NCBI GenBank assembly: GCA_008632985.1
Contig: QPGO01000036.1
Coordinates: 62,001 to 126,000 of the forward strand
Reading direction: 5' to 3'
DNA from: Psammoneis japonica
Taxonomy: Eukaryota
Length of the DNA: 64,000 nucleotides
Position numbers and translations under genes: made by a program. The notes under the pieces are model-generated. The model had not been told where the DNA came from, searched no databases, and saw nothing but the letters and a program-made list of their open reading frames with translations. Below are positions 1,026 to 64,000 of the stretch, piece by piece (position 1 is the stretch's first letter; every line of letters begins with the position of its first letter).

Positions 1026-1459
1026 TGCAGCATGCATGCAGACAAAAGGTTATTTTTGTCACGCCCTTTGTGACATTTAAACTGTAACACGTCGCCGTGA
1101 TACATTAACTCTTATTAGTAGCTGTATATTGCACTCCTCCCCATGTATCACGCGCAGAACTAATGTGCACTGACACTGCACGTTTTTGGCGGAACAGTGT
1201 GGGTACGTACAAAGGAACATACAGAACTGCACAGAGTTTTACGCGTTCGACAGTGATCAACGTTGCTGCAGACAACTCCCACTCAGGGTTTCGAACCCCT
1301 GGCCTCCTGCCTAATGGTCACGCATTGAACCACTCCGCTATGAATTCATAATGCAGCATGCATGCAGACAAAAGGTTATTTTTGTCACGCCCTTTGTGAC
1401 ATATAAACTGTGACACGTCGCCGTGACACATTGACTCTTGTCAGCAGCTGTGTGTTGCA
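1026..1459 (-). mobile_element. TRIM-like miniature LTR retroelement (108-bp LTRs at 1026-1133 and 1352-1459, 4-bp TSD CAAC)
   Basis: Two 108-bp direct repeats, each TG...CA. CAAC flanks both ends (1022-1025, 1460-1463). Purine tract GGGGAGGAG on the minus strand next to the left LTR. Element absent from copy B, which has a single CAAC. Confidence 0.9.
1277..1348 (-). other. tRNA-derived segment with Pol III A-box and B-box inside the TRIM
   Basis: Minus strand reads TAGCGGAGTGG (A-box, 1340-1330) and GGTTCGAAACC (B-box, 1297-1287) at tRNA-like spacing. A full cloverleaf is not convincing. Confidence 0.7.
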
Positions 1460-2816: not shown

Positions 2817-2851
<35 letters not shown>

Positions 2852-2884
2852 AGGGAGGGAGAGAGGGAGGGAGGGAGGGAGAGA
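2817..2884 (+). repeat. (GA)n / G-run / (GGGA)n microsatellite (copy B at ~34672-34732)
   Basis: Read directly from the sequence; length differs between the two duplicated copies. Confidence 0.95.
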
Positions 2885-3268
2885 CACACGCTCATTTTGC
2901 AAATTTGCTTTCTTCTTTTTGTGCAAAGAAATGCAACAATGGGCACAGGATGGGGCTTCTTGTTGTAGAAATTTCTTCTGGCATGAATGCACAAGCAACA
3001 AGCATGATCCATTCACTGTCTGGTGACTTTGTTGCAGCAGACAGCAACAAAAGGGGATGTCCATCCATGCAAGTGGCAGAACGTGCGCATCCAAAAGTGT
3101 GGCTTGACTGCTTGGGTGCACTTGCAGACACTGCCAAATGGCCAAAAATGAACAACATTAATCACACTGAAGAGCAGACAGATTTGCAATCAAAAACAGT
3201 GCATGCAAATGCATCAACACAGGAAAGACAAGCATGTGGCACATGGTTTTTAGTTGAAGTCAGTCCAT

Positions 3269-4640
3269 CTAAATGCAATGACACATGGCCCACCCAAGTT
3301 TCCTCCTTTGAAGACACAGCCATTCACAGACTGCACAAAAAGGCCCTGGTGGTGTTGCACCCATGCTGGGTTTGTTTTCACAACTGGCATCACAAAAGGA
3401 TGGGCATGTGCCAATGACTGCATCTGTTGGAAGTTTCAAACCCCAAGCATGCAGATTGTGATTGAATGCTTTGGCACACTCAAAGATGTCGCCAATGTCC
3501 TTCACAGAAGAAACATCCCAGACAGCAATGTTTGCATTGAACTTTTCTGCTTTTCTGAAAGTCCAAGCCATTTCAGTGACACCGCTGACATCCCACTTTG
3601 AAATGTCCATCCCACTTTGAAGTGTCAGTGGTGAAAAAGATGGCCTTGCAGATTGTCCAACTCATTGCAGTCACAGAGGAGAAACATTCCAACCAAAAGC
3701 AAATGTCTCCCTGGACAAAGTGTGGCACTCCACTGAAAAATTGTTCATCTCTGTGACACTTGACACACCCCAGTTGGAGATGGAGCTCCAATTGCCTCTG
3801 TGGTGCTTTGCAGCCTCTTCAGAAATGTCGCTCAAAAATTCTCAACTGAAGAGGTGTCCCAAGTGGAAAGATCACCACCCCAAAGCTGTCTGGCATGGCA
3901 AAATGTGTTTCTCATGACAGTGGTCACACTGGACACAACTGATCTCCATGTCCCTTGAGACCTTGATTGACTTCAGATGATTCAAACATGGAAGACATGT
4001 CTGTAACAGATGCAACATTCCTCTGTTCTCCAATGGGTTGATTGAAAATGGGAAACCACAGAACATGCCAGACATGTCAGTGACTTGAGCATCTTTCCAA
4101 GAAGACAATTCCTCACTGAACTTGGTCCCCCAAAACAAGTTGCTGCTGTCATCAACTGATGAAATGTCCCAATCCTTGAGTGAGAGATTGAATTGGGCTG
4201 CTCTCTTGAACATGGCATGCATTGTGTGCTGGCTTTGGATGCATCCCATTCATCAGTCAATTGACCAAAGAATGCTGCTCCATGGAAAATGCCACTCTCA
4301 TGTCTGTGACTGCACTGGCATCCCAATCACTGATCAATTGATTAAAGCTGGAGGCTTCCCTGAACATTTCAGACATGTCTGTCACCAAACTGACATCCCA
4401 ACCACTGGGGCTTTGAATGAAGGGCTGGGCCTTGTAAAACATGTGTTGCATCAATGTGGCGGCACTCACATCCCACCCCTGCAAGGGTTGGTTAAAAAAA
4501 ATCTGATTTTCAAAGAGATCGTGAAATTTTGTCACCTTGGAGATGTGCCAACCCTTGCCAAGGCTGTGTTGGGCCAAGACAGTGGTGTTGTTGGCACTTT
4601 CAAAGGCACCCAAGACTTGGACAAGTTTTTTGCAAATTTC
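3269..4640 (-). pseudogene. BspA-like / DUF285 repeat surface protein, degraded (copy B ~35117-36490)
   Basis: Repeated WDVSxVTxMxxMF / FNQxLxxWDVS motifs (WDVSGVTEMAWTF, FNQPLQGWDVS, WDVSLVTDMSEMFREASSFNQ) scattered over several frames. Confidence 0.85.
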
Positions 4641-4999
4641 AAAACAAGGACAGCCTTGCAGTCCCACACACAAAGTCTTTGGGATTGATGGCAGTGTCAT
4701 GAAACCTCCATTGTTGCTGTTGCTGTTGTTGGGATCACTGTTTTTGGGGCCACCATTGCCATTGTCTCTGCCACCATTGGGGTCACCATTGCCATTGTTT
4801 TCACCCCTGCTGGAAGGATTCAGTTTCTTTGGTTTGCTGGATTGGACCAAGTCAAAAGTGGAATGGCAGTGTTCACAAGAATGGATGCTCAAGCTGCTCT
4901 TGGATTGTGGCAAAATTGCCAAAAGTCAAGATGAGTGCTCTCCAATCTGGGAAGCAGTGGTGCTGTCAATGGGGTCATGTTGCAGGTGAAAAAGTGTCT

Positions 5000-6819
5000 T
5001 GCTGAACCCACAGATTTTACCATGCTTGCCAAGACACTGGATGCAGCCATGCAGATTTGCAATGTTCTTGCTGTGGACTTTGAGAGCTGACTCAAGGAGC
5101 TGACTCAAGGAGTCACTCAATGGACCCGTGCCACTGAGTGTCATCTTGCTTTTGTCAGGCATCTCTTGGACATGTGTGCCATTCCTGTCATTTGGGATTT
5201 GCGCAATTCACTCACCTCCATTGTTGATCAAGACTTGACGCTGGAATCCAAAGAACACATCATCATTCAAGAGGGCTTTCATGAAGAATTAGATGCCAGC
5301 AGGGAGCAATGCAAAAACCTTGGCAGTGTGCAACTGTGCCATCACAATGTGTCGTGATTTGCACTGACATGGTGCTCACAACCACAGCCATTGCTCTCTT
5401 CTAACATGCAGATCTGCTCATGTTGACTGCGGGCCAAATTGGTGACAAGCACGCTGAAGCAACAAGCATTTGAAACCAGAACACAGTGCAGTTTTCATTC
5501 TGCAAGCAGGATTTCGCACGGAACTTGAAAGACACCACTTGCCACCCCCATGCCCTCACTGAAAGCTGAAGCAAACAACATTTTGTCCCCAGATGCCAAT
5601 GTGCACTTGGATCTGCCACCAGATTTTGATTTTGTCTTTTTCCATTGAACAAAGCTTTGCTTCAAGGATGACAAGGTTTGAACTCTTGATCAAGAGAATG
5701 GGGAGTTGGATGCCACCATCAAGGACTCCATCATTGTGGTCATCACAGAGCTTGAAGAAGACATTCTTGATTGTGAAACAGAAGTTCAAAGTGCCTTTGG
5801 AGCACTTGCTGAACTCAATTGCATTCTTTCCTTTGCATGCTGCACTGCTGACAATGACTGCACTGGGCCCCAGTTGCTCCCCATTGACCAAATGTGTGTT
5901 CAAATCAAGAATGACAGTCATCCGTTGCAAGAACTCATTGTAGATGGAGAATTCATTTGGAACAACACAAGCATGAATGGGGAACAGAGTCATGTCAATC
6001 TCATTGCTGGACCAAACTTTGGTGGCAAGAGTTGCCACACTTGTCAGGTTGGAATGCTTGTGCACATGGCTCACATTGGATGCTGCCTTCCCTGTGACTC
6101 TGCCAGCATTTCCATGGCAGATCAGATTTTTTGTGTGCATTGACACCGCTGAAACTTGCTTGGTGCCCCACAGCAGCTTTCGGGATGATCTGATGCACAG
6201 GTGGCTTCTGTTCTTGGAAGGAGCACCCCTTTGTTGCTTGTGCTCATTGACAAAGTTGGAAAAGGTGGGCACAGACTCTCTGGAGGCATGCTTCTGGCCA
6301 TTTGACACTCAGCCCATCTTGTTTTCCTTGTGTGCTTGCATCGCTGAAGGCACAAGCACAGTTTTGGCAGTGGCAATTGAGAATCTTTCTTGCATGAAAG
6401 GCAAAATCATTTGTGCAACCCATTTCCTGGAAGTCTTTGGCTTGGGATTGCTGCGGGACAGTGCAGACAGAGTTTGTGCCCACCAAATGATGGCACACAT
6501 TCCAGAGTCAAAGAGCAAGGACAAAGAAGAAGACTCTGGTGCAGCACCCTTGTTCAAACTGGAGCAAGGCATTGCTGGGTTGTCTGCAGGGCTTGTGTCT
6601 GCCAAGAAAGCCTCACTCAAACTGGAGCAAGGCATTGCTGAGTTGTCCACAGGGCTTGTGTGTGCCAAGAAAGCCAACACAAACAAGAAAGTCCCAGCTG
6701 GAGCAAAGGACATCCTTGCCACTGCCAAAGATGGGTGCACCACGCAACTGTTTGAAGAAAGCATGAATCTCCCAGAGCCAAAGCCAGAGGTGAAGGATGT
6801 CTTGTGCATGTTTCTGTGA
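5000..6819 (+). pseudogene. MSH5: MutS-family ATPase, most like MSH5, degraded (copy B ~36850-38668)
   Basis: AELNCILSFA, HPLQELIV, Walker A GPNFGGKS, QVGMLVHMAHIGC.LPCDSASI...DQIF, ATHFLE and PLFKLEQG match MutS domains III-V. Frameshifts and stops present. The 5' boundary is approximate. Confidence 0.75.
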
Positions 6820-9499
6820 GTCAACTCATGGGCAAATGCCACAGACAAGCAACTTCACTTGCTGGAATGCATGCTTGCTGCCATTTCCATCCCACAGCAG
6901 GGGCATCACAGTTGGGGGCAGCTTGCGCAGACAACAAGGAGACAGGACCAAGACGTGAACAAGCAAGGTGGGTCAATCAAGGGATTTCCATTTTTTTTTT
7001 TGTGCTTCTTGTGTGGGAAAAGGCAGCACTGGCAGATGAGAATGCTGCAGCCCAGTTTCATAATTGAAGAGGCCTCCCCATCACAACAAGGTGGAGCAAG
7101 GGTGTGCTGAACCTTTTGCACACAGCTTCAATCACAAAAAATGGTGCAGGAGCTCTTGTGATGGTGTGGCATCTCTTGTTCTCTGGCATCAAAGTCAGTG
7201 AATGCAATCAGCAGGCTTCTTGCATGTCAGATGTGAGCAGCAGGTCTTGCATGGTGCTGCCCAGTCAGAGTGCAACATCCACGCACAGCACAAAGTGGGT
7301 CACCTCTCTGTTGAGATTGTGCAATGGTGCAGAGGCTAGAAGATGCGGTGTTGACAACAAGATGCTCAATGCGGTGGTGCCAAATTTGTGGGCAGATTGT
7401 CAACCACACTTGCTGCTGCACTGCAGTTGGCACTCTCATCTTTTTGGTTCCAGCAAAAAACACAAACAAAGCAAGATGTGTGTGAAAAGATTCCAGCATG
7501 GCTGCCGTAAACTGAAAAGCCCTTCACACGCAAGGTGACAATCTGACTTTACATTTTGGGGAGACTGCAGAACAATGTTCTACATCAATGTTTGCAGCAG
7601 AGCACTCTGCCGTCACCAAGAAGATGCCAAATCTGGCATCAACAATTGTGTGTCCCAGGCCAAACATGAGCAACAATGAAGAGAAAGAATGTTCTAAGAG
7701 AGGGGAGCTGTGGCAGCTCCTCTCGTGCTTTCACCATTTGCACGTCAGCTGGGCAATTTGTTGCATTGGTGTGGACAGAGAGAAAGTGGCATCTGCGTCA
7801 TGGAAGGGGCAAGCAAAATGCATGACAGGTGCACTGCCAATCTTTTGGGATGGGCTGTGCTCCTCCAAAACCAATTTGTTCAATTGAGTGACATCTGCCA
7901 TCAGTGTTTGAGTGGGGGCCTGGGTCTGTTTGAGTGGGCTTGGCTCCTTGTTGCAGCCACAAGGTCAAAAGTGTCAGGGGCATGATGTCCAGCTGCAAGG
8001 TTCCAAATGCTGGTTTTGCCACGACAATGATGATTTCTTTCTTCAAGAGCAAAAATGCAGCCCTGCAGTGACTGAAGTGTCTCTTGCATGGTCAACAAGC
8101 ATGTGCTCAGCAGGCCAAAGCCAAGACCAAAGCCAGCCACAACTCACAGCAACAAAGCCAGGCTCAACAGCTTGGGTGTGACAGACAGCCTCACACTTGG
8201 CAGCCACAGAAATGCTTCCATGCCAGGCTGAGTGACAAGAGGGACACACTGCATCTGCAAAGGACATGGTTGAGCCCCCGTGCTGCATGAGAATCCAGAA
8301 CACCTTGCAATGGTTGACAAAAGAAAGAGCTGAGAACAGAAAAAAGCCCAGCGCCAACAACAGACCCCAGACAAAGCTGGTCATCATTGAAAACCACATG
8401 ACAAACCTCACAGTCCCCAAGTGGAAAGAAAGCTTAGAGGATGTTTTGTCTTGTTGACCCTGTGCATTTTCGTCATCTCACGGTGACGCCCCTTCCAGCT
8501 GATCCCAAGAAGCTTCTGCCGCACTTGACGGTGCACTGGAAGTGTGGGCCAGCCGGCACCGGCTTGGCTGGCAAAGGAGTGACAGCACCACAAACACAGA
8601 TTTGGTTTTTTTTTGACCCTGTGCATTTGGTGCACCTCTCAGTTCCTCTGATGGGCAAAAGTGGTGGCAATTGGCACAGCTTGCCACAGCAGGGCAGGGC
8701 AGTTTGGCAACCTCTTTCTGCAAACAGACATCGGCTCAGCTTCTGACCACAAAAAAGCAACAAAAGCATGATGCATCAACAGCCATGGCTTGAACCAGCA
8801 ATGCTTGGGACAGTTGGCCTGTGCAGTCACTGCACAGAAGGAGGCCTCATGCAGGCCAAGCTGGGAGGTGGGCACTGGGCACATTTGCAAAGAGTTTGTT
8901 CCTGTTGTTGACAGCTGAGAGCCATTTCTGAGTCATTGCAGTTTGCTGTTAAACACCTGGTTGCATTGGCTGTGTGCTCACTTTGCACACATGTGTGAAA
9001 GCTCTTGTCCACATGTGAAGAGCTTCTGCTCCAAGCTCATCTTGGTGCTCAGCAAGCATTGCACAGCGCAGAACATTGTGCACACTGCTCACCAGCAACT
9101 TCAGGGGTCAATCAAAGTGCAACCCACCCAATGAGTGCACCTCACTTTCTTGCAGCTGATGCACAGTCATGCCAACATGTCCGCTCAGAAGAATGAGCAC
9201 AAATGATCATGCAGGCTTGAATGGCATGTGCCTTGAGAATGTCACGCATCTCCTCCTGCTGTGGGAGCCCTGCAGCAATGCCTGGTTTTGCTGGTGTCTG
9301 TCAGTTGTCATCAGCACATGCTGCATGGTCCTCCCCCATGACAAGAGCCACAGACCACCAGATGTCCTGCTGGCAATGGGGGGCACAATCTGCCACAGAT
9401 TGGGCACATTTGTCACCCCACCACACCATCTTGCATTCATGGCATGCTGTTGTCATTCACAAGGACAACTCTGACAGAGCCTGCATGACTGCTGTGTCA

Positions 9500-10449
9500 G
9501 CCCTGTGCTTGGGTTTTTGTTTCCATTTGACAAGCATGATGAGTTGCCTCATGGTGGGTGGAACATGTCCTCTGGCAAGCAGCACAACTGGTGCTGTGCA
9601 CGGAGACAGAATGTCCATGCACAGTTGGTGCAGGCAGCTCCATCACTCATCATGCCAAAGAAGGGTTTGACAGCACAAGTTGTTGACAATTTCTGTGGGG
9701 GCTTGAAAAGAGGAGGGCAGAGTGGCTGCCAGCCATGTCCAATTCACCATGTCCAGGATGTGGTGCTCAAGCTCAAAGGTTTCATGTGGACAATGCTGCC
9801 AGATCTCCACTTGGGGTGCCACCACATTGGACTTGACGGTGACAGCCAAAAGTTTTGTGCTGTGCTTGTGTGTCTGATGCAGGTCCCAACAATGGGGGCT
9901 CATCCAATTCACCCGACATCTTTCAAGAAAATGTGCCAGGGCTGTTTGAAGACTTGTTGTTTGCATGTGCATGCCCAGATGATCTTCTGGCAGCCACTGA
10001 AAGTGCTTCTGAAGACCACCACTCAGAGAAGCTGGCAGCCATGCTGCAGCTTGCAAGCAATGCTGGACTCAAGGTCAATGGAGGAAAAAGTGCACTTTTG
10101 AAAAATGCAGCTGGGGTGCCAGAGCCACACAGTCAATCAGGATGGGACACACTTCATGGGCACAATGAGCTGCAGTTGTGACAATGACCAAGACACTCTG
10201 AAATGTTGGACCACCCACCAGACAACTCAGCACAGGCAGGACTTCAAAATGGAGGCAGATGTGTGTCAAGGACAAAGCACTTGAAGCCAAAAAAGTGTGT
10301 TGTCAGACAACTTCTCATTGGCAACTTCAGGTTTCAACAAAGCTGATGCCTCCAAATGTCAACTCAGAGCAGCAACATCACAGGACAACAAACCTGTCAT
10401 TGCACCTTGTTGCAGCAGAAAGCTTGACAGTTGTTTGCAGTTGAACTGC

Positions 10450-10494
<45 letters not shown>

Positions 10495-11100
10495 GAGAAA
10501 GAACTGCTTGCCACTGTGGAGATGTTGAAAGAATTTCAAACAACATCCTTTGGTCAGCACACAACTGCACCTGTTGATCACAAAATTCTTGCATGGAAAG
10601 TGCTCAACAACTCCAAATGTTGTGCACTTTTGCTTGATGTGCAAAAAGTGCAGCTCCAAAGAATTGCAGCACAGCATCATGTTGTGCCACAACCCCCTGG
10701 TTTGCAGATGCCCCCAACTGTCTGGCACTCAAAGTTTGAAGTTTGAGTGTGGTCTGCTGACAGTGCTGGAGATGCCATGTCTGCTGCATGAAGTTTTTGC
10801 ACTGGAGACTGCAATGCCACCAGCAAGCTCCAAGCAAACACACAAAGAACAACAGAAGGACTGGCGCCTGCTGCTGAATGTGTTGTGTGTTCCAGTGTGC
10901 ACTCCATCCATGTGTGCCAGAGACATGATTGAGAAAACACCTGAGTGTGAGCTGCATTGCAAGTGGCTGCACCATCATGAAAAGGCATGCACAGAAGCAT
11001 CTGCTGCCTGGCACTTCCACTGGCTGGCCCAGCATGAGGTCTGCACCCAACATGTGCCAAACATGTGCTGCACAAGAAGATGAAAGACTGGAGGACACAG
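9500..11100 (+). mobile_element. Ty3/Gypsy pol remnant (RT and RNase H), degraded (partial copy B ~39951-41200)
   Basis: AAPSLIMPKK; PCPIHHVQD (PYPIPKIQD); DLHLGCHHI (DLNMGYYHI); SNSPDIFQ; ACPDDLL (AYIDDLL); AGLKVN; DASKCQL...SRKL...CTTT..EKELLA (DASKYQL...YTTTEKELLA). Boundaries approximate. Confidence 0.85.
10450..10494 (+). repeat. (ACA)15 microsatellite inside the Gypsy RNase H YTTTE motif (longer and interrupted in copy B, ~40540-40603)
   Basis: Read directly from the sequence. Confidence 0.95.
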
Positions 11101-11601
11101 TGTGGAAGAAGCTGTCAGAAAAAAGCATCTGAGATGATCCTGTGGGAGACCTCACATGTGTGGATGAAAAGCAGGCCCTTGGAAGCTCAGGCTCAGTGGG
11201 TTGACTGTGTGTGCCAAAGACTGACTTTGGCTGGAGCCTGGGCCACATGATTGAGTGTTCCAACCAAAACTGACCCAGCAGCTTGGCAGCCATTTCCAGA
11301 TCTAGCTTGTTCTTTTCAACTGCATGCTCCACATCAAAATGTGCTGTGAACATCAAAATCTTTTCAATGTGGCTGTGTGATTCTCCATGTGGAATTGCAT
11401 GATGTGTCTCTTGCAAAAGTTGCCACATGGCAGCAGCATGTGGTTCTTTCTGACAACTTCTTTCAACTTTGCAGTTGCAGAAGCAGCACCAGAATCAACT
11501 GTGGGAAATGGGCATGACATGCGTTGTGCAGAAAGTGGCAAATTGTTGTGCACTTCTTGCCAAAATGGGCCTGTTGCATTCAAAGGATTTTGACAGCCAA
11601 T

Positions 11602-12063
11602 GAAGCACCGCCAGAGGAGGAGAGAAAGCCGCTGGCAGAAGTGGCGGTGGTGAGCACTGAAGAAACAACCACTCATGTCATTGTCGTGGATCAAGGAAAC
11701 TGCGGCATGACATGTGCTGCAGCACACGTCACAGTGTCCTTGCTCTTTTTGTGCACACAAAACAGCTCTCAAATGGCTTTTTTTACATCGGCAAATGGAT
11801 TTGTCACCGTGCTGCCAGCACCCTTCATGCTGGTTGACCTTGAGCCTTGTGAAGCACCTTCTGAGGAATCTTTGACTGCTGAAGAAGCGCCGCCAGTGGA
11901 GGAGAGAAAGCTGCCAGCAGAAATGGCAGTGGTGAGTGCTGTGGAAACAGCTCCTTGCATGATTGTCGTGGAGCAAGGATGCTGCGGCATGAGGTGTGCT
12001 CCAGCACATGTCACAGCACCCTTGCTCTTTTGGTGTGTGCAAGACAGCTCAATCAAATGGGCT
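11602..12063 (+). repeat. Diverged ~280-bp tandem duplication; related sequence at ~46190-46480
   Basis: gaagcaccgccagaggaggagagaaagccgctggcagaa (11602) versus gaagcgccgccagtggaggagagaaagctgccagcagaa (11884), with matching downstream blocks. Confidence 0.8.
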
Positions 12064-12782
12064 TCTTTCTGCTTTGTGCTCCTCAATGCAGCCGCCAACC
12101 ACAGTCATGACCGGCGTTGTGGTTTTCAAATTTAGCAGAGGGGGGAAACATGGGGCTGGTGCACCGACTGCAGCTACGAAAAAATGCGGGGAGACTTTGA
12201 AGGAGCTCCAAAAGCGCTGTGTCCTGGGTTGCACTTACACTGTTTTCACTCTTTTGAAACAAGAAAATGAAAAATTGAAAAAGAAGGAGTTGGAGTGGAA
12301 AGTTGCAACTGGTGCTGATGATTGTTGGACCGCATTGTGCTCAGCTGCAAAGGGTTTGGCAACGGAAGAGATGCTCAAGGCACTGCAAACAAAAGAGAGG
12401 AGAGCCAATCCCATGTCCAAGTTTGAGCTGGTGGAAGCACACATGGTGGGGGGAGATGATGTTGTGTGTGACAGTGACTGGTGTGGAGTGGGTGGGGAAA
12501 AATGGGGAAACAGTGTTTCAGTGCATGTCGCGCAGTCAAACAATGTCAACAGTTCCAGCACGTGCACCATGCTGTGTTCTGTTGATTGAATGTTGTTGCA
12601 GGATGTCTGTCAACTGTTGTGCCAGGTGTGCCAAACTGCATTTCATCTGTTGCCCATTGTGGCAAGTGTGACAAACTCCACTCTAATCTGTTGTGGTGCG
12701 TTAAAAATTGAAGTGCCTCTTGCCAGCTGCCACAACAAGCACTTGCCTCCACCGCCTCTTGCACTCTGAGAACAGGCGCCAG

Positions 12783-13596
12783 TCAATGCAACTCATTTTC
12801 CTTCTCAAGAGAGGCCACTGAAGCGCAATGCTTGGAACCGGGGACCTGACAACAATGACAAAATGAGCGAGCCATTGCAGGAGTGACACTGTCAAGAGCA
12901 TCAAGGTGGTGCTCAACCCACCTTGTGCTCCCATGTTGCTCAAAGTGTTTTTTGCAGCAACCAAACATCATTTCAATGGGATTCAAGTCAGGGCAGCATG
13001 GGGCAGTGAAGACAAAAGCAGCTCTCTTTTCTTCAATGATGTCCATGATGCACTGTGAGAGGTGAGTTGATGCATTGTCAAGCACAACAATGGACCTTGG
13101 CTCTCCCTCCTCTTCAAAGTTGTCGGTGCAAGCAGCCAGTTTCTCTTCAAACTAAAGTTCAAATTGCTCCTGATCAACTTCTCCTGTGAGTGGGTTGTTC
13201 TTTTTATCTCTTGCATTGCCCCCAAGGAACAATGTCACAGGCCTCCTTTGCAAATCCATCAATGTCACAAGCCACAAGCAATGAATGCTGAGCCTGTTTG
13301 TTGATCTCAAAGGATGTCAATCAAACAGGAGTTGTGTCTCATTGAGACCACCAGTGCCACCATCTTGATGAGTTTCAATCTTTGTGAGACTCATCCAAGC
13401 ACAGTGGCATTTCAGGTCAATGCACTGCAGCCTTCAATGCTTGGAGATGTGATTCCCTTTCTTTCTTGTCTGTTTCCATGGCCTTGTTTGTCACAACTTG
13501 AAGGGAGCATCCCACTTCCTTTCCAAGTTCCTCATGTGTCTGGGCTGGGCTCCATTTCTTGTGAGCAACCTGGCCCAGCACTTGGGTCACTCGCTC
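12783..13596 (-). mobile_element. Tc1/IS630-like DDE transposase remnant (copy B 42889 to ~43900)
   Basis: LDNASTH...FTAPCCPDLNPIEMMF matches the DNAxxH...PYSPDLNPIE signature of IS630/Tc1 transposases, with Tyr replaced by Cys. Confidence 0.85.
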
Positions 13597-24379: not shown

Positions 24380-25590
24380 CCACTTTTCCCATTTAAATGC
24401 AAGAGTGAATGTCAGAGCGGATCGACTTGCTGGCGCCCATCAAGGTCGCTATGATTGGGACACATCACGTGTTCTCCCGTTTCCTCACTGCCATTCTTGC
24501 TTGTCACTTGCAGACGGCACCTTGACCTCTGGTCACAAGCAACAGCTTCGAAATGCAGCCACTGCTCCCCAGCTGTTGGAGTGCACAGTCGAGCGCAATC
24601 AATGGCGACGAGAGGTTGTTGACCTCGTGAACTGGGACGCCCACGCAGTTTTGATCAAGCGTCATTCCAAGCAACACGTTGGCACGGTGAAACTCGCACA
24701 CGATCTCCTTCCTGCCAACAAGATGGCACACCGGTACAATCCGGTTCGCCCTCATCACTGCCTTGAGTGTGAGCATCCCATGGAAGACAGGGATCACATC
24801 CTTCGATGTCCAGAAAACGAAGCATGGCGCCGGAAGTTTCTACAAGGCCTTCGGAAATGTTGCGACTGCATCGATGCAATGCCAACTCTACGAGACTTCC
24901 TCATCAATTCTCTTCAAGCCTGGTTTAACGAAGAGATCATTTACACGGACGATGTTGATTGCCGCTGTCAGGAGCTGTGGCGCGCGCAATCAGATGTTGG
25001 TTGGAGACAGATTTTTAGTGGCCGCCATTCAACTTTGTGGAACCTGATTCAGTCGGGACATTTGCGGGATTCGGGCATCCTTCGCCAACACAAAGCTGAA
25101 GACAAGCATCCACCAGATTGGACGGCACAGATCGGGTCATTCATCTGGAGACAATGGTGGGAACTGTGGGAGGAACACAATGCATTCATGCACGGCCACG
25201 ATGCGGATTCATGCAAGTCATCCCAATGGCGAATGGCAGAAGCAGAACTGACCGCAATGCATGACAAACAACAAGAGCACCTTGCGAAAGATTGAGCAGC
25301 CCTTCTTGATTCAGTGGAAGAACACAAGACGTTCACAACGGTTCGAATTCAGAATTGGATTGCTGTGGTTCGTCCCCGATTAAAAGAAAGTTTGAAGGAA
25401 GCCAGGAAACTGGCGCGTCGTGGCACACGCACCATTGCCAGTTATTTCCGTCGGGCGTCTCCTCCGGGAGGCGCCGTTTCAGGCTAATCGCATCCACTTC
25501 TGCCGCACTTGCAAGTCAAGTGCACTGGAGGTGTGGGTCAGCCGGCGCCGGTGTTGCTGGGCAAAGGTGCAACAGCACTTTAAATTAGGA
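24380..25590 (+). mobile_element. 5'-truncated non-LTR (LINE-like) retrotransposon, 3' part
   Basis: NVRADRLA (end of RNase H), then VNWDAH, VKLAHDLLP, CLECEHPMEDRDHILRCP (Cys/His finger), QSDVGWRQIFSGR and WELWEEHNAFMHG. Ends at cactttaaattag. TA depleted, CG retained. Confidence 0.8.
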
Positions 25591-44482: not shown

Positions 44483-44666
44483 NNNNNNNNNNNNNNNNNN
44501 NNNNNNNNNNNNNNNNNNNNNNNNNNNNNNNNNNNNNNNNNNNNNNNNNNNNNNNNNNNNNNNNNNNNNNNNNNNNNNNNNNNNNNNNNNNNNNNNNNNN
44601 NNNNNNNNNNNNNNNNNNNNNNNNNNNNNNNNNNNNNNNNNNNNNNNNNNNNNNNNNNNNNNNNNN

Positions 44667-44717
<51 letters not shown>
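44440..44717 (+). repeat. (TG)n microsatellite spanning an assembly gap (N at 44483-44666)
   Basis: Read directly from the sequence. Confidence 0.98.
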
Positions 44718-48200: not shown

Positions 48201-48619
48201 AACAGCATTTTGTGGCCATGCAAGTTAAAGGAGCATTGCCAAGTGCCCCAGAAGAAGCATTGTGCCACTCGTTTGCTGCTTCTGATGATGTCGACACCAG
48301 CAAGACATCATTTCAACCACTCGGAACCTCAGATCTGCCAACATTGACAAAAAAAAAACAAAGCAGCCACCCAAACAGAAATGGATCACTTGCTCTTCAC
48401 TGAGAGAGCTGGTCCACACCATTCACAAGGTCACAAGGTTGTGCAGCCAGAGGATTGTGTGGCTGAGCTCAGAGCTCAGCTGCTCAACGATGTCTCATCT
48501 GCTTTTGGTGAGCAAGCTGAGTCTGCAGTTTTGGTGGACATTGAGCAAAAACTTCCAAAAAAAGCCAGTGCCAAAGAGGAAGAAAAGACAAGGACAAGAA
48601 CAATGTGATGACCAGGACA

Positions 48620-49451
48620 TCACCATGGGTTTTGTCCAAAGTTTGCCACTTTTGTGGAAATCAGTTGCCTGGATGATTGGAGAAGAGCCTTTCTCAAACA
48701 TTGCGGCAATGAATGAGAAGAATTTTGACTCACTCATGTTGCATGTGAATGCAACAATCAGAAACAATCTAGAGTGGATGTCCTTGGGGTCAGTTTGGGA
48801 ATTTGTTGCCCTCTTTGACAGCCTTTGCATGGCACTGGCAAAGTCAGAAGCCCTCAACCAATGGGCTGCTCACATGGTGCATGTGCAATGCTGGACAACT
48901 GGAGCAGCAAATGGGCCCAGGAATCATGGAGGCAGAGCTGTCAAGTCACCAAAGGCTGTTGTCACTGTCGGCATAAAAGACTGTCGTCAGACTGTTGCAA
49001 ACTCTGTCAGGCCAGGTGATGCGGCACTTGAAGTGGGCTGTCATTTTGGTGCCACCACGGCACTGCTGCACAAAGCCGCTGCTGCAGGAGCTTCAGGTGG
49101 CCACGCCGTTGGAGTGGACGTGAGTCCCAAAATCATTGGTGGAGCCAAACACAAAAACCCAGAGGTTTTCTTTGCTGTCGGAGATGCGTGGAAGACGGCA
49201 AAGCCATTTAGAATTCAAAGAGAGTTCCTTGAAACAAAGTTTTCGTCTGAGCCAAATGATCGAGTTGGGTTTGATGTCGTCTGTGTTGACGTTGGTGGCT
49301 TGTCGGGAGGTGATGGGCTTTTGGAAGCCCTCTCGCTAATATGTTGGCATTGATGAATGCGCTAGAACCAAGATGTCTCGTGATTAAGAGTCTCTGTATG
49401 AGACAGTTGTCGTCAAGTCTAATCCCACACTGGAGGAAAACAAGAGATTAA
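48620..49451 (+). pseudogene. Class I SAM-dependent methyltransferase-domain gene, eroded from the 5' side
   Basis: LEVGCHFGATT (motif I), VGVDVS, GDAW, FDVVCVDVGGLSG. Frameshift near 49340, then ALEPRCLVIKSLC...stop at 49449-49451. The 5' boundary is uncertain. Confidence 0.7.
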
Positions 49452-55916: not shown

Positions 55917-56421
55917 CGGAGCTCAGTATGAACGATTGATGAAGCGACTGTGTTTCTTCTCTTCGTGTGAGGGTAGCTCGCTCGACATCGCAACCAAAGG
56001 CTCGACATACTCAAACTATTGATGATAGTAATTCTGAAGCTAACTACAGGTTGTCATCTTTAGTGATACTATACTTTGAACTACTCTGCCTACCATCAAT
56101 CTACAACAAATCAAGCATGCAGGTGTGGATAGTTGCCCTACTCTTTCTGCCCTCTAGCTCATTGCGTTGCCTCTTTGGGGTTGAACTTGACAACTCTGTT
56201 TACACCCTGACACCTCTTGAGAGTTGGACTTGGGGCGCCTGTAAAATGGCTAGCCCCAACATTTTGTGCAGAATCGCTCAGGTAGATCTATCATCCTCTG
56301 CCGCTCTGAACTCTGCATTTTCTCTGGCTGCTACGATCAACTCTCAACTCTGGGCTAGTGCAAGATTGACAGATGAGATCTTTCAACCGGGCCTTCCCAA
56401 TTCTGTGCTATGGTATGCTTT

Positions 56422-56666
56422 TGACAGGGATCCCACATGACCCTTTTATATTGGAACCTCATGTTCGAAGATAGCATATATATTCAGTCGGGTTTATGAC
56501 TGAAATTTACTGATCTTTCGGAGTGTTTCAACAACCTGTCGGAATCTATCCGTTCTGACAGCCACATCGATTCTGAGACTAGCTCAGAATCTCTCACAAC
56601 TTCTAGACAAAGCATTATCGCAAGGTACTGTTTCTAGATTAGGCTCTAGCTTACTCTCTCCTGTCA
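56422..56666 (+). repeat. 5' LTR of the copia element (245 bp)
   Basis: Begins TGACAGG and ends CCTGTCA (7-bp inverted termini). The same TGACAGG follows the PPT at 63994. Confidence 0.85.
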
Positions 56667-56676
56667 GTGCACGGAC

Positions 56677-59600
56677 TTGATCACCCAAGACACTCTCAGG
56701 CGAGTGCCCAGCTCTCACCCATTTCCCATCATGGTTGCAACACTTCCGGTTCGGTCCAACACGACCGCTTCTTTCAAGCCGAGTGCTGCTCATGCGTCTC
56801 GCAATGCTTCCTCTCCCAAGCCGTCTTCGCACGCACTTTCTTCGCATGAAGCTTTCACGGTCCACGGATGCTCCGTCGATGACGTCCCCATGGCCGACCC
56901 TCGTGACCGTTGTCACAATGTTGATGCTGGCTCCATTGTTCAGCATGCTGGCATGTACACCGCACGTCGTCGTCGATCTCGTCGCGTGACCCAGGGCGTG
57001 CACCACCCTGCCACCCGTTGCATCAAGCGCGCATCTGCGCCACGCTCCAAGCCGCCTTCCAAGCCCTCGCAGCAGGCCCCCAGGCGCAACAAGGTCTCCA
57101 CCCGTCGCTCTCAACGTGCTGTCAACCGCACGCTCTCTAGCTCTACCGACACTGTGGATTTTGAGCGCCGTGTTTGCTCATCTGTTCGTGGCCTTCGCAA
57201 CGGCAAACCCGCCACTTTGCCCAGGACCCTTCATGCTGTTTCGCAGCCGACTCGCAAGCGCACCAAGACCGCTCGCCGTCGCACCAAACGTGCTCTTCGT
57301 CGCTCTGTTGCTTCGGTCAAAGGCACCCCGGCTCCTGCTCTGCCTGCACCTGACGAGCTCCGTCTCTCTCGTGTCAAAGCTGACGTCCGCGCCGCTCTCA
57401 GCGAACGTCTTGCTCAGGCCCAGGCCCGAGTTGATCATCTCCAACTCGAGACTGAAAAGATCTGCTCCAACTTTCACATTGTCAAGCACTCTCGTGCTCG
57501 ACTTGACACGTTGTTGGAACAATCCACTCACGATGAATCCAAGTTTTTCGACCCCGAGCACAATCTCTGTGACCGCGCGATCCGCGACCAATTGACAGAT
57601 GTCGACTCATCCCTTGACATTTTACATGTCGATTTGGACACTTTGCATGACCGCATTCCGAAACCTTCCGCACGCGATAACCCCGCGCCCTCTGCTCACT
57701 TTTCTGGGCCGCGCCCCCGAAAACGTCAAACCAAATCACGCTCGCGGCAATCACTCCGGATGACTCCCAACCAGGAACACCATGCACTACGATCCTACCG
57801 TCTCCGCCATGGCATGTCCCGCTCCGAACCCTTTTATCATCCAGACGCCGACTCCTTCTTTCGGCCTGAAACAAGAAAGTGTCAAGACAGTGGCCCACAG
57901 CAGTCTCCGCACCCCTCTTCCGATCACTTCATCTACGTCACCGTTGAAACTGTACACTCCGACGATGCGGACGATGCATCAGCTCAAGGGGCGTCTCAAC
58001 CCATTGCTGACGACCCGCCACCCACTGTCACTGCACCACTGGGGTCCCCTGAGGAATTCCCCCCGCTTTCATCTCCAACGGATCAAGCCACTCCTGCTCT
58101 CTCCCATGTCGACCCATCATCAACCTCCGCGACTCCGCTTTTTGATGTTGTCACTCCCACGTTGAATGAAATGGATGAAGCACTTGACAAGGCTCTTGCC
58201 TCTCCTGCTCACACTCCTGCAGTCAACTCACCTTCTCCAGCTTCGCCCGACACCTCTGACGCGCCTGATCTGTCCGTCGACCAAGACATCAACGTCCAGG
58301 TTCGTCTCGTCACCTTCGAGGCTCTCTTCGACACCCAACAAGCTCTCGCACCGTTTTTCCATCGTGAGAATGAACGTGCCGCTGAGCTTTGCGACACTGT
58401 CGATTCGGCGAAAACGTCTTTCGAGCGCCTCCTTCGTCGACACCCTGCTTGCGAAGCAAGCACTCTCGCACTTTGTCGTTTTCAGGACATGATGCGCGAA
58501 GCCGAGTCCCTTTACTTGGAACTCATGTTCCGCCTTGCCCTCACCCCACGACCACACCCCGCTTCCCCGTCCGCTCACCACTCATCAGTTGACGACACTG
58601 TTTTCTCTCATGTCGCAAGCGAGCGCACCTCGGAATCCTTGTCAAATTCACTGATGAAGCATGCATCTCACACAAATTTGCGCACTCTGAAGCACCATCA
58701 GAATCCGCACACACGACGACAAAAATTTCATGCATTCTTGAATGACTTGCGTGGGACCTTCGCATCATTTCCGGAATTCAATGGTGCACTCGATGATTTT
58801 CCCTCTGTCCCTCTCCGCCCACTTCCAGACCATGCCGACAGCACCCTCTGTGCCCTCCTCTGGACGCATGTGGACGCAACGTGCCAATCTGACATTTCTG
58901 ACCTTGGATCTCGTTCCGGCAAACTTGCTCTCGAAGAACTCCAGCTGCGCTGTGCGCCCATCACTCAGGAACACAGCAACCACTGTTCAAACGACTACCT
59001 CCAAGTCTTTCGCAACTCGGATGAGTCCGCCAGCAGCTTCATCCAACGGTTTGAACGAAAACTCCGGAGCCACAAGAACGCCGGCCTTCCCGTCAAGACT
59101 GATGCGGATGTCAGTGCCCATTTTCTTGGCCAAATGGGCAGCCATCCCCGCTGTGATGCTGCCATCAAGCAATTCGAATCCGAATTTCGCACTGCTGCTC
59201 GTCTCTCCTCTGCCACCGCTCCTCGATTTAAGGACATCCGGCAAACGTTTTATGATGTCGACGAGCAGCATCACAACCAACAGCATCGTGATCGGCTCTC
59301 GCATGGCTCCCGCTCCCGCTCTCACAACAACCATGCTCACCTTGCCACCGTCAAACGCGCTCCTCGGAATGCACAACGACAGCAACAGCAGCACCGTTGC
59401 CCAAACCAACCTAACGCCACCGAGATCTGCGACTGCTGTGGCAAACGCAACCACAACGCCTCCGAATGTCGCTCTCGGCTCCGTGATCTGAAGAAGGGCA
59501 CACCCAAGGATCAACCTGCTGCCAAACCTCCTCGCGACCTCAGCGAAGTCACGTGCCATAACTGCAGAAAAAAGGGGCACCTTCGTCCCGACTGTCCCGA

Positions 59601-62600
59601 ACTCGCCAAGGACTCCAAACAGACCGCTCTCGCAGCCACTGCACCCACCATGCACTGCCGCGCAAAGGCACCTCCCCCGAAGGACCAAATCATTTTCTGC
59701 GCTGCTCGAGCTGATGTGGAGGACACTCACTCTTGTTGTCCCTCCTCTTCTGACTCTATCCCAACCCTGGTGCCATGCCACGTCTCCTTTGATGACGACT
59801 CATCGGCCTGCTGCTCCACGAGTGACTCGATCGCATCTTCCTCTGCTCATGGAACAATGCCTGCCATCACTCTCCAGGACCTCCTTGATGACACCTCTTC
59901 GATTGATGGCAACAACACTCTCTCCGCCAACTCGCACTCTGCTGGTCCTCCGCCCCTTGCACATCATGATTGCGACTCCAGCACGGAATCATCATCCACC
60001 ACGCCGTTTTTGGTCCGTCGCCCACGCAAACCGGATGACACTGCGGCCTGCCCTTTTGATGAACCGCCCCCCGGGAACTCTCCCGCGGAATCACCAGTCT
60101 GCTTCGACTTCCACGACGCTTTCACCACGGCATCTTACGCCTCCAGGCACACTGCCATCTCTGACGATGATGTCGACTCCGTCACATCTGATCTCAGCTG
60201 TGACTCCATCGACACGGTCCACACCATCCCCCGTTTCTCATGCGACACCGCTGACTGTCACGTTCAAGTTGCATGCATGGCCGACGATCCCAACCAGTGC
60301 CGACCTCACCAACAACCACGCGACTCCGACCTCACGGACATCAGCAGTTGGTTTGTCGACTCTGGTGCCTCTTCCCATTTCGTTCATCATGACTCACTTG
60401 ACGACAGCACCCCCTGTCACGTCCCTGTTGTCATTGCAGACGGCACCACCGTTCATGCCACGAAAGTTGGATCCGTCACCCTCCGTTTTCAAGATGACCA
60501 AGGACATCCGGTCAACCTTGTTCTCGATCGCGTCCATTGTGTCCCCGGCCTCAACTGGAACTTGTTTTCGGTGCCCTCCTTCACGGCCAATGAACTCTTC
60601 AATGTCCGAATCACTGCCAATGTCACGACACTTGATTTTGGCGACGGACACACATTCAGCTTCCCGATTCTCCATCACAAGCGCTCCTGTCACGATGTCA
60701 CCGCTGCCACAGAACCGGAACCCACTTCCGACCTCCCGTTGACGGAAGCAACCAACGCCCAAGGCTCATCGAAACCAGCGACACATGCAATCGACCTTGA
60801 CCTTGCAGGTCGCCGTTTCGGTTGTCGCTCCTCTCAGAGCCTTTTGGCGGGCACAGTTGGCGAAGTTTGGCGCGACTGCCATGTTGCCCCCGGGACTGAC
60901 GACTGTCTCGACAACGCGCGCATCGCCATCTCCCGAAAGCGCAACCGCGTCAAGTGTGACCCAACTGAACCAACACACACATTTTCACGTGTGTTTGTGG
61001 ACACAATTCCCAACCCTCACACAGTCGCACTCACCCCAAAAACGTCCTTTCCCTGCCACCTCTTTTTGGCAACCCACAAAGGACACTGCTGCGGTGTTCG
61101 TGGCCTCAAGAGCCCATCATCTGGCAACATCATCGCCGCCTTTAAATCATGGATGACCGAAGTGCAATCCCAGGGACAAATCCAAGACACAAACTTCATC
61201 CGCGCGGACTCCGCAACATGTTTTCTGTCCTCCGAATTTCTTGCATTTGGTGAAGACAATGGAATCAAGGTCGAAGTTGCCACTCCACGTCACCAGGAGC
61301 AGAACGGGGTTGCGGAACGCATGTGGCAAGTCGTCAGCCGGATGATTCGTTGCCTCCTTGTCAACGCAAGACTCTCGGCACACTTCTGCCATCATGCATT
61401 TGTTCATGCCGTCGCCATCCTGAACGTTCTCCCAGCCAAAGGCACGCGGCTCCCTGATGGCTCACTGGCTACACCGTGCTTCCATGCATTCAACAGACTT
61501 CCAAAGATTGGCAACTTTCGGGTCTTCGGATGTCCCGTCACTTTTGACAGATGCCAACCCCTCAACCCGGCAACTCGTTGCCCGACCACCACCCAACAAC
61601 AGATTCAACATCGATCTTGTGGCATTCATGTGGGTTTCGCACCAAACCAGGCTGGTTGCCTCATCTGTGTTCCTGAGGGCATCGGCACCAAGAATCTGAT
61701 TGTCGCGCATGACGCTGTCTTCGACGAACTTTTCGAATCATCACTCGTGCACGACCACGTCCCCTTCTCTGGCGCACTCCCGATCCGGAACATCTCCAAC
61801 GACGCCTCCGGCCTTGAGACATGCAACGAGAATCCTGTGGATGAACATGCGGGTGCCATTCAAGATTTCCTTGACGTTGACTCACCCCCTTGTCCCTCCA
61901 CTCTCACCGAAGCGCCTCCGGAATCCGATGAATCCGATTCAGAGCCACCATCCCCTGCACCCACTACAACCGGTCTCAGACGATCCACTCGCACCAACGC
62001 TGGCCTCCGCACTTCCGTGCGCTTCGCGGACGAGGAGCAACTCTACGCCATAACCTCCTCCACTCCCCCAGTCGATCTCCTCGAACAAACTCTCTTCGAC
62101 GACTCCCTCGCCATGGAATCTGCGTACAGCGCCTCCGTCAAATCTCCTTGGCCTGACTGCAATTGGCACAAATGCCCGGATCCTTTACAACAGGCCTTGG
62201 AAGCCGTCCAGGCCACCTCTTCATTTCCCATTGATGACTGCTCACCCGTTCCCCGCTCTTTTCGAGCCATCCTCAGACAACCTCCTGCGATTCGCGACGC
62301 CTGGCTTCGTGCCGTCCGATCTGAGCTCAAGAACCTCATCGTGGACAATGAAACCTTTGCTCTTCATGAATGTCCCGTCCAGACGATGAGATCATTGGCG
62401 CCACACTTGCTCTACGTGCCAAGGAGAAATCCGACGGCTCTCTGGAGAAACTCAAGGCTCGACACTGTGCGCGCGGCGACATGCAACGCAAATCAGCCGA
62501 TGACGACAATTGGTCACCAAACGCATCCTCTTGTGCCATCAAGCTCTTCCCAGCTTTTGCAGCAAAGGCCAAACGGCACGTCAAGAATGGTGATTTTGTT

Positions 62601-63956
62601 GGTGCTTGCCTTCAAGCCCCCGCTCGCGGCCGCCTCTTTGTTCGATTCGACCCGATTCTGAAGCAACATTTTCCTGAATGTGCTGAATGTTTTGGTGTGC
62701 CCCTTCGTCTCAAGAAAGGCATGTGCGGGACCATCCGCAGTGGTCTTTGGTGGTCCACCGAGCTCTCCGAATTTTTGCTTGCCCAAGGACACACCAATTC
62801 CAAAGCAGATCCCACCTTCTTTGCCAAGCACTTCCCCGACGGCTCATGTCTCAAGCTCATTTTCTACACGGATGACATCATCTACTTTGGGTCTCACGAC
62901 AGAGTCGAGAAGGACTTTGAGAACCTCACACGATCCAGGTGCAACATCACATTCAACAGTGACGTCACCTGGTTCTTGCAAATGTGCATCCACCGACATT
63001 CCGACGGCTCCTTCTCTCTCGACCAACATCGACATGTGCGCAATCTCCTCAAGCGGTTCCTTGCTCCCACCTCGCCTTGGGGCAGCCCCAGCTTTCAGGA
63101 TGCCCCAGCCCCCGTTGATTGTGTGTGCTCCAAAGCGAATCAACCCAAGGACGCCGCCGAATCCAAGCAAATCGCGAACAAGTATCCTGGTCTCCATTTT
63201 CGATCCGCTGTCTGCTCCATCCTTTATCTCGCCTGCAACACTCGCGCTGACATTCTCTGGATCACCTGCAAACTTGCAAAGGCTTGCACCAACCCTGGTG
63301 TGAAGGATTTTGATGCTCTCGTCCACCTTTTTGGCTGTCTCCGCAAACATCAAGACCTCGCCATCAAATTTTATTCTGATCCCACCGCGAGCCCTGTTCA
63401 CGCTATTTGCGAAGCTCACGACATCAGCCATTCTGAATTTGTGGTCTTCGCCGATGCCAGCTGGCAGGATTGTCCGGACACCGCCAAGTCAACCGTTGGA
63501 TTTATGGTCTACTTCAATGGGGCAACAGTGGAAGCCAATTCCACTGTCCCAACCCCTGTTGCAATGTCCACTGCCGAATCCGAGTGGATGGGTGCCTGCA
63601 CTGGCGCCATGGCTGTCGCTCACCTGCGCATGTTGGCCTGCGACTTCACCTTCCTTGGCACTCGCCACTGCTCCATTGACTCCCAGCGACTGTCCACTGC
63701 TCCCACAATCCTCATGTTGGACAACCAAGCCGCAGTCCAAATGGCCCAAAACGACCAACAAACTCGACGAACCCGACATGTTGAGCGACGCTTCCAATGT
63801 GTCCGCGAAGGGCAGCGACTCGGTCATCACTTGCTTGTTTGGGTTCCCGCGGAAAGTCAATTAGCGGACTGCCTCACCAAAACTCAATGTGCAGACAAAA
63901 TTTGGGTCATGGTCGACCGTGTCCTGTGGCGCCTACCTGCACACATGCTGTCATGA
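56677..63956 (+). pseudogene. Copia gag-pol polyprotein; one frameshift near 62375; conserved Tyr replaced by Cys/His
   Basis: Zn knuckles CDCCGKRNHNASEC and CHNCRKKGHLRPDC; protease WFVDSGASSH; integrase IRADS...TPRHQEQNGVAER; RT LKARHCARG, DFVGACLQ, LKKGMCG, FYTDD; RNase H FADASW, STAESE, DNQAA, QLADCLTK. True start unknown. Confidence 0.92.
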
Positions 63957-64000
63957 GCCCCTTCTCATCTTCCCTCATTCGGTTCAAGGGGGGTGACAGG

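Follow-up and report, generated by a model that had tools for sequence, protein, structure and literature searches.

Loss of TpA dinucleotides from a copia-type retrotransposon and surrounding DNA in the pennate diatom Psammoneis japonica

The 64-kb stretch of Psammoneis japonica DNA analysed here (assembly GCA_008632985.1, contig QPGO01000036.1, positions 62,001 to 126,000), called the window in what follows, ends in a Ty1/copia-type retrotransposon with long terminal repeats (LTRs). The element is a recently inserted member of a multi-copy family of this pennate diatom. The interior of the copy has lost nearly all its TpA dinucleotides and most of its conserved tyrosines and has kept its CpG; it is a local instance of a process seen across most of the window. 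Judged from its sequence, the copy is now probably dead. Our evidence comes from the window, from database relatives and from Logan contigs of public DNA runs.

The 5′ LTR (245 bp, plus strand) occupies 56422..56666. It has TG...CA ends, and its first and last 7 bp are exact inverted repeats (TGACAGG ... CCTGTCA). Directly 5′ of it stands GCTTT (56417..56421), which a first-pass annotation, made by a model from the letters of the window, had predicted as the target-site duplication (TSD); it is found where expected and keeps the status of a candidate, the 3′ flank lying beyond the window end. The internal region (56667..63993, plus strand, 7327 bp) closes with the polypurine tract AAGGGGGG (63986-63993), which is followed by TGACAGG, the seven bases of the 3′ LTR that fall within the window (63994-64000) and the same at 7/7 positions as the start of the 5′ LTR. 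This match, together with a loose end at 56422 in three contigs of a public DNA run and the end at 56451 of the contig that carries the unique flank (depth 56, 0 differences), places the LTR at 56422-56666. Contig depth rises from 56 on the flank to ~1000-1400 over the LTR and is 250-1080 over the interior. A shorter LTR model, 56556-56666, was rejected: it gave a match of only 6/7. No primer-binding site was recognised 3′ of the 5′ LTR, and there was no tRNA gene for comparison, ARAGORN having found none in the window.

Two open reading frames (ORFs) fill most of the interior, both on the plus strand. ORF1 (56677..62661, 1994 codons) comprises a long N-terminal region, two Gag zinc knuckles, the protease, the integrase and the start of the reverse transcriptase (RT). 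Both CX2CX4HX4C knuckles are intact (59428-59469 and 59554-59595; residues 918-931 and 960-973), and the Pfam zf-CCHC score for the ORF1 knuckle is 17.7 bits, under the cut-off of 20.8. A protease / Pol beta-barrel match (Pol_BBD, PF22936, E 3e-11) covers 60349..60591, residues 1225-1305, with the D-S-G motif of the protease present at 60355-60378; the integrase and an SH3-like region (60802..61746) are recognised by homology to diatom copia polyproteins. ORF2 (62370..63956, 528 codons) carries the RVT_2 reverse transcriptase (PF07727, 54.8 bits against a cut-off of 31.6) and an RNase H part that aligns with relatives.

Pfam, homologues and domain order all bear out the first-pass identification of a diatom copia polyprotein. 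A word-indexed search of 5.8 billion proteins returned 94 homologues of ORF2, the best at 52% identity; the nearest belong to Fragilaria crotonensis or to metagenomes of marine and freshwater origin, and among the best 72 of the 94, every named homologue is from F. crotonensis. The element resembles the diatom CoDi retrotransposons in its copia-type polyprotein, and its identity to sequences in the databases searched is at most 52%. With 1200 residues of ORF1 as the query, exhaustive HMMER searching returned 3563 matches, 43 of them at E <= 1e-30. Seven long relatives have the domain order knuckle, Pol_BBD, (rve), SH3-like, RVT_2, with which the element agrees, and the long N-terminal region is also found in relatives (2100-2700 residues). 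Pfam scores in the relatives themselves are low, at 60-88 bits for RVT_2 and 21-44 bits or nothing for rve; for this reason the absence of an rve match in the element was rejected as a sign of decay. The N-terminal HHCC finger of the integrase is unalignable, with H>G, H>C, C>L and C>A at its four positions.

The family numbers several to some tens of copies, besides solo LTRs. No other copia fragment was found in the window, since all tblastn matches (311/311) fall inside the element. At the frameshift site (62371..62377) the element has a C run one base short relative to most family copies, and one extra C near 62373 is present in 464.2 of 749.9 depth units (two contigs). The short run leaves ORF1 and ORF2 out of frame and the extra C would join them; the rest of the family encodes a single frame of about 2427 codons. 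The polyprotein had been described as still open, which holds for ORF1 and fails at this 1-bp deletion, by which the RT is separated from the rest.

TpA and tyrosine in the element

TpA occurs 36 times in the 7327 bp of the internal region, for an observed/expected ratio (o/e) of 0.10, and is absent from the first 289 bases (56667-56955). CpG occurs 527 times, with o/e 0.99. In 80 related copia loci from metagenomes the TA o/e is 0.39-0.97, and 0.49-0.96 in the closest 17; the TA-loss pattern was found in none of these loci from other diatoms (0/80). The closest relatives are equally C-rich on the coding strand (C 0.23-0.34, G 0.15-0.23), so the C-richness and GC skew of the element are native and its TA loss is not. 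Per kilobase of the RT region, relatives have on average 45 TA, 61 TG and 91 CA, against 7, 82 and 94 in the element.

Two side observations concern these ratios. Five of the metagenome relatives have CpG o/e of 0.17-0.69 with TG and CA raised and TA normal, a pattern of ordinary CpG decay from which the TA process is absent. The unique flank of the element (56001-56421) shows the reverse of its interior, with CpG o/e 0.33 and normal TA (0.81).

Other copies of the family were seen as contig differences, and we considered the 40 best supported of 1703 variable places. At 59256/7 and 63299/300 the element has TG and other family contigs have CA; at 59346, 59557 and 62689 it has CA or TG and others have TA; at 63863 it has TA and others have TG. 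On a single strand, TG and CA products intermingle over distances of 10-20 bp. Of the 40 differences, 12 are CpG>TpG/CpA changes private to the element; 4 changes of this type are in other copies. The earlier statement that CpG remains abundant is therefore right as to the count, and must be qualified in that CpG decay of the element has already begun.

ORF1 has 11 Tyr in 1994 codons (0.55%), none of them at residues 1155-1789, which span protease and integrase; the first-pass estimate of about ten, with none in the integrase core, holds. ORF2 has 6 in 528 codons. The first-pass annotation had allowed that host genes might share the deficit. They do not: in six host ORFs of the window, Tyr makes up 3.4% of the residues (55 of 1598).

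Conserved Tyr columns were defined by alignment to 35 relatives for each of two parts of the polyprotein. The RT/RNase H part has 10 such columns, at which the element has 3 Tyr, 5 Cys, 1 His and 1 Trp, and the protease-integrase part has 5, at which it has 0 Tyr, 3 Cys and 2 His. With both parts joined, 3 of 15 Tyr columns are kept, 8 read Cys, 3 His and 1 Trp. Eleven of the 15 are thus Cys or His, in agreement with the proposed recoding by TAY>TGY/CAY. Conserved non-Tyr columns are altered in 79 of 364 cases, and the probability that at least 12 of 15 Tyr columns would be altered at that rate is 2.5e-6. Across the RT/RNase H alignment the element has 1.1% Tyr and 4.5% Cys, the relatives 4.9% and 1.8%. 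Among the losses is the Tyr next to the motif-A Asp of RT (AY>AC), which we take to be the sugar-selecting residue of reverse transcriptases.

The motifs first cited for this recoding fared unequally. Alignment with relatives confirms AYLQ>ACLQ, MYG>MCG, QHRY>QHRH and H(Y/F)VRE>QCVRE. At ARHCARG no Tyr was lost, because relatives carry Val or Ile there. In the case of CDCCGK and CHNC the knuckles are indeed present; a former Tyr is undecidable, as the positions vary among 34 knuckles from relatives, and one relative itself has CHNC.

Taking Tyr and non-Tyr columns together, the element differs from the consensus of its relatives at 91 of 379 conserved columns. A single TA>TG step is found at 11 columns and a single TA>CA step at 4; three more columns include such a step, and 10 of the 91 mismatches are of CpG type.

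There are 0 in-frame stops in the ORF1 frame and 19-81 TGA in each of the other five. A check of the genetic code shows that TA>TG/CA never makes a stop from a sense codon: the sole stop-related outcome is TAA>TGA, stop to stop, and TAA and TAG are themselves removed. The open frame follows automatically from this, so that openness, which had been put forward as a notable property of the copy, is none. What the two counts do indicate is that the copy underwent very little ordinary mutation.

Depleted domains and a duplicated block

The loss was first described as a property of a single element, and this does not hold: most non-genic DNA of the window is affected, sequences other than retroelements included. 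Binned at 500 bp, TA and CG are bimodal across the window. In the gene islands (13.5-16.5, 28.5-31.5 and 49-56.4 kb) TA lies at about 0.4-0.9 and CG at about 0.8-1.3. TA is 0.00-0.2 in almost all remaining bins, most of which also have CG 0.0-0.3, with TG and CA near 1.9. TpA-depleted DNA makes up about 70% of the window and is usually CpG-depleted too. TA is lost in all codon phases and frames, unrelated pseudogenes included.

The doubly depleted DNA contains recognisable remains of several kinds. These are gypsy RVT_1 and RNase H fragments (9843-10743), a DDE_3 transposase fragment (12786-13151), DUF285 repeats (3272-4925), a lysine-methyltransferase-like fragment (2201-2668) and a MutS domain V fragment (5682-6140) that matches MutS, MSH2 and MSH3 structures at E 3e-14. 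For the ORF at 5977-6816 no PDB relative was found. A pseudogene of a methyltransferase-like gene conserved in diatoms (48289..49350, plus strand) lies at the edge of a depleted domain; a Seminavis robusta protein, for example, is 36% identical. None of its 354 codons is for Tyr. Where relatives conserve Tyr, at 4 columns, it reads Cys, Cys, His and Phe, and 66 of 179 conserved columns are altered (37%). CpG is lost only in the 5′ part of this pseudogene.

A LINE-like stretch at 24400..25550 (plus strand) is depleted of TA only, with TA o/e 0.16 and CG 0.88. In addition, TA loss extends 200-400 bp beyond CpG loss at the fringes of depleted domains. The first-pass view that TA loss is separable from CpG decay and ahead of it is thus upheld outside the copia element as well. 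The ORF at 24315-25292 (326 codons) has a C-terminal Cys/His motif which by eye resembles that of non-LTR retrotransposon ORF2; the ORF matches no Pfam family and is unrelated to the copia element.

A block of roughly 12 kb is present twice, as copy 1 at 1..13596 and copy 2 at 32382-43702. The copies are 98.5% identical, depleted of TA and CG, and hold the MutS-like, DUF285 and methyltransferase-like pseudogene fragments together with the gypsy RT/RNase H and DDE_3 sequences. They share 1202 TG and 1169 CA. They differ by 10 TG<->CA swaps, where about 1.5 adjacent double differences are expected by chance, and the more divergent first kilobase adds 7 further swaps. A swap of this kind indicates an ancestral TA or CG that was resolved separately in each copy. 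The copies also differ at 36 sites by CG<->TG/CA and at 11 sites by TA<->TG/CA.

Two side observations belong to this block. Copy 1 has an extra 1.75 kb (8108-9860), likewise depleted of TA and CG. Between 1460-13596 and 33316-43702, 23 of 125 substitutions are AAY<->AGY (or the complement RTT<->RCT), possibly another hot context, whether of this process or of a different one.

Within copy 1 lies a miniature LTR element of 434 bp (1026..1459, plus strand), with 108-bp LTRs at 1026-1133 and 1352-1459 that end in TG...CA, an interior of 218 bp and the TSD CAAC. Copy 2 has the empty site (~33316), so the insertion followed the duplication. The two LTRs differ at 9 sites, of which 8 are of TA type and 1 is a transversion. 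At each of the 8 sites the 5′ LTR has TA and the 3′ LTR has TG (5) or CA (3), and all converted sites are in the 3′ half of the 3′ LTR, outside which the miniature element is normal in TA and CG. All CpG are unchanged in both LTRs (4/4). LTRs are identical at integration, and these now have 8 TA-type differences, so conversion took place after insertion. A tRNA-like sequence noticed by eye inside the miniature element was dropped: neither ARAGORN nor Rfam found an RNA gene there.

Explanations and known systems

On balance we favour a TpA-specific A:T>G:C hypermutation that acted in place, at the level of DNA, on silenced or repeated DNA and left a dead copia copy. The A:T pairs of 5′-TA-3′ would be changed to G:C on either strand, giving TG or CA, and about 85-90% of the original TpA would have been removed from the copia interior. 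Expected protein outcomes would be Tyr>Cys/His, Ile>Val/Thr, Val>Ala and Thr>Ala. The process would be a host activity on DNA, most likely integrated, silenced or repeated DNA in place, and it would be distinct from, and much faster than, the later CpG>TpG/CpA decay of the same DNA.

Several results lead to this reading. The conserved Tyr columns give the direction of change. Conversions that postdate the 12-kb duplication and the insertion of the miniature element are what we read as hypermutation at the DNA level. Interleaving of TG and CA on one strand excludes strand-specific editing as the sole mechanism. The lack of stops and the intact CpG despite about 87% TA loss argue that the process was fast. 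From these we infer a dedicated enzyme, action in place on the copia copy and a non-functional element. As guesses at the enzyme we offer an adenine deaminase acting on DNA, or an activity that makes a mutagenic T modification at TpA. The process probably extends genome-wide. We also lean, with the same reserve, toward seeing in it an enzyme-driven system of genome defence or retroelement restriction that erases TpA in mobile and duplicated DNA, an adenine- or thymine-directed counterpart of fungal RIP (repeat-induced point mutation) and APOBEC editing, with a signature for which no description in any organism was found in the literature searched; as part of that picture it would more probably than otherwise act before CpG methylation decay and independently of it.

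The following observations weigh against hypermutation in place. The 5′ LTR keeps its TpA (17 TA, o/e 0.82; 7 CpG), and depletion begins at the first internal base (LTR versus interior, Fisher P = 3e-13). At about 20 times the depth of the flank, this LTR is the most repeated part of the element; a spared repeated LTR is not predicted by repeat targeting in place, and this makes editing of a replication intermediate the main rival. The miniature element was only partly hit, its 5′ LTR and 218-bp interior being untouched. Residual sites in the duplicated block differ between copies at similar rates for TA (11/35) and CG (36/97), so that the fast regime is deduced from the copia element alone. 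The platform of the DNA run that contains the element, which may be the assembly source, is not on record.

Other such points concern the disabling of the copy. The catalytic residues are present (D-S-G, the integrase acidic core, Y-x-D-D and the RNase H acidic residues), as are both zinc knuckles. TA-type changes make up only 15-18 of the 91 conserved-column mismatches; the others, transversions or changes of several steps when set against sequences at about 50% identity, may be lineage divergence. Because most mismatches are not of TA type, loss of function of the copy is plausible from its sequence, short of proof. Thus the earlier proposal that the polyprotein was disabled by Tyr recoding is correct in that the damage is missense, and goes beyond the data in calling it disabling.

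The main rival places the editing before integration. A TpA-specific deaminase would act on the single-stranded intermediates of reverse transcription, so that the copy arrives hypermutated, and the old TA loss in non-retroelement DNA would then be a separate slower process or rare action of the same enzyme. We regard this as a possible explanation, tentatively held and clearly second. An LTR spends less time as a single strand than the rest of the element and, in proviruses mutated by APOBEC3, is the part least edited; depletion here starts exactly at the LTR/internal junction. The youth of the copy in other respects (0 stops in 1994 codons, CpG o/e 0.99) agrees with such editing; so do the retroelement-like character, by the motif seen by eye, of the other TA-only stretch (24400-25550) and the alternative product at the same sites in other family copies, as independent events would give. 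The evidence on the other side is of two kinds. Within the copia element both products stand on the sense strand (11:4 in conserved columns, 8:3 in Tyr codons), where editing of one strand would yield a single product, and surviving TA show no monotonic gradient, numbering 10 over the first 1.3 kb, 8 over the 3 kb that follow and 18 over the last 3 kb, a spacing that is not decisive without the ancestral TA density. Elsewhere in the window, the LTRs of the miniature element came to differ after integration, TA sites were still changing after the segmental duplication, and the DDE_3 fragment and the MutS-like, DUF285 and methyltransferase-like pseudogenes are TA-depleted too. Editing before integration has no explanation for the two products on one strand, for the pseudogenes or for the changes that followed duplication and integration.

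A slow regional bias would need no mutator: CpG and TpA would both decay in methylated or heterochromatic DNA, and the copia copy would be an unmethylated old insertion. The similar change at residual TA and CG sites of the duplicate and the fringes that lose TA over 200-400 bp are in its favour. By our estimate, however, ~87% TA loss at ~60x the background rate implies ~3% divergence and several stops, and none is seen. The 8 TA-type changes against 1 other in the miniature LTRs, the unaffected LTR and unique flank adjacent to the depleted interior, and the absence of the pattern from all 80 related loci add to the difficulty, and we consider this explanation improbable.

Less probable still is A-to-I editing of the element's transcript, at A after U, by an ADAR- or ADAT-like enzyme and its fixation by reverse transcription. 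ADAT-type editing favours an A preceded by U; A>G after T prevails here (11/15 informative sites), and in the RT region TG is up by ~20 per kb and CA by only ~4 relative to relatives. RNA editing cannot, however, yield TA>CA on the sense strand, which is seen in 4 of 15 columns, in 3 His and in 3 of 8 sites of the miniature LTR; the LTR is part of the RNA and yet is spared, and non-retroelement sequences are affected. Near-complete conversion of one dinucleotide also exceeds, to our knowledge, known levels of RNA editing.

An artefact of sequencing or assembly, such as the systematic misreading of a base modified at TpA and CpG, would suit the restriction of the pattern to DNA likely to be modified, namely repeats, and is very improbable. 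Misreading on both strands would give all TG or all CA and is excluded by interleaved TG and CA, and the conversions are common to copies that are 98.5% identical and, read as Tyr>Cys/His, are coherent in the protein. The DNA run with the element, which shows 0 differences on the flank, contains 56% of sampled element 31-mers, and 228 of its 869 aligned contigs are at least 99% alike. A converted site occurs about every 25 bases, so nearly every 31-mer spans one, and DNA with a true TA at these places would not be expected to match.

Equally remote is a native composition, in which the family avoids UpA/TpA under selection, tolerates Cys and His and is functional, as 1994 + 528 open codons and the intact catalytic Asp/Glu, Y-x-D-D, D-S-G and knuckles might suggest, in view of the TA o/e (0.39-0.97) and Tyr content (4.9% vs 1.1%) of relatives, the 12 of 15 conserved Tyr columns altered, the alternative product or TA at the same sites in copies of the same family, the loss in all phases and frames and in unrelated pseudogenes, and an LTR of its own that is not TA-poor. 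Even pooled, slow bias, RNA editing, artefact and native composition amount to an unlikely set.

The closest known logic is that of fungal repeat-induced point mutation (RIP), from whose defining C:G>T:A polarity the window departs; it also falls outside the definitions of APOBEC and ADAR editing. RIP makes C:G>T:A changes, typically CpA>TpA, leaving DNA TA-rich with many stops. The window appears to share with it dinucleotide-specific transitions in repeats or duplicated genes, the sparing of ordinary genes, the inactivation of mobile elements, action on integrated DNA and both strands, and an apparent leak of a few hundred bases into flanks. In contrast to RIP, the DNA here turns TA-free and G+C-richer (A:T>G:C), no stops are created, the host is a diatom, and a 245-bp LTR at ~20x flank depth is spared.

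APOBECs deaminate C of the minus strand, which gives G>A on the plus strand. The copia element is reminiscent of APOBEC3 action in that a young retroelement copy, by its looks dead on arrival, has hundreds of context-specific internal transitions and a spared LTR; it differs in that A>G and T>C occur instead, at TpA and on both strands, that non-retroelement DNA is hit, and that conversions continue after integration. With ADAR/ADAT hyper-editing it has in common A>G and the preference for a preceding U/T. Unlike such editing, it concerns genomic DNA, includes the complementary TA>CA on the same strand, is nearly complete for one dinucleotide, and affects sequences with no RNA intermediate.

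Decay of 5-methylcytosine at CpG likewise turns a self-complementary dinucleotide into TG/CA in silenced DNA, and in the window's old repeats (CG o/e about 0.1) this decay and TA loss are found together. It targets C, however, and can create stops (CGA>TGA), and it is separable here, since the copia element, the LINE-like fragment and the domain fringes lost TA and kept CpG.

All programmed or semi-programmed hypermutation of mobile DNA known to us (RIP, APOBEC, 5-methylcytosine decay) acts via cytosine and toward A+T. TpA-specific hypermutation of repeats was not found described, for diatoms or elsewhere, in the full-text literature searched, which included few subscription journals and no supplements. 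The words dinucleotide, RIP, hypermutation and deamination do not occur in the text of Maumus et al. 2009 (PMC2806351), and a term look-up in a 2025 preprint on diatom transposable elements found no TpA-specific hypermutation. If our reading is true, the window reflects a new natural DNA-editing chemistry, possibly a TpA-specific DNA adenine deaminase or a mutagenic thymine modification, and a genome defence of a new type in a major algal group. Dead transposons would then persist as long ORFs annotated as proteins by gene finders, TpA loss set against CpG loss would offer a new internal clock for dating insertions, and the spared LTR would show by what means targets are recognised. An extreme signature and public DNA reads of the organism make this a directly testable case.

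Other features of the window

Upstream of the copia element, a CobW-type GTPase gene (52994-54379, minus strand) has 56% identity to a Fragilaria protein and 48-52% to those of other pennate diatoms. An assembly gap of 184 N (44483-44666) lies within 44440-44717, and the short-unit repeats that flank it match exactly over 37-43 bp at 2-base offsets. ORFs with helicase-associated (HA, PF03457) domains are found at 15456-16291, within a TA-normal gene island.

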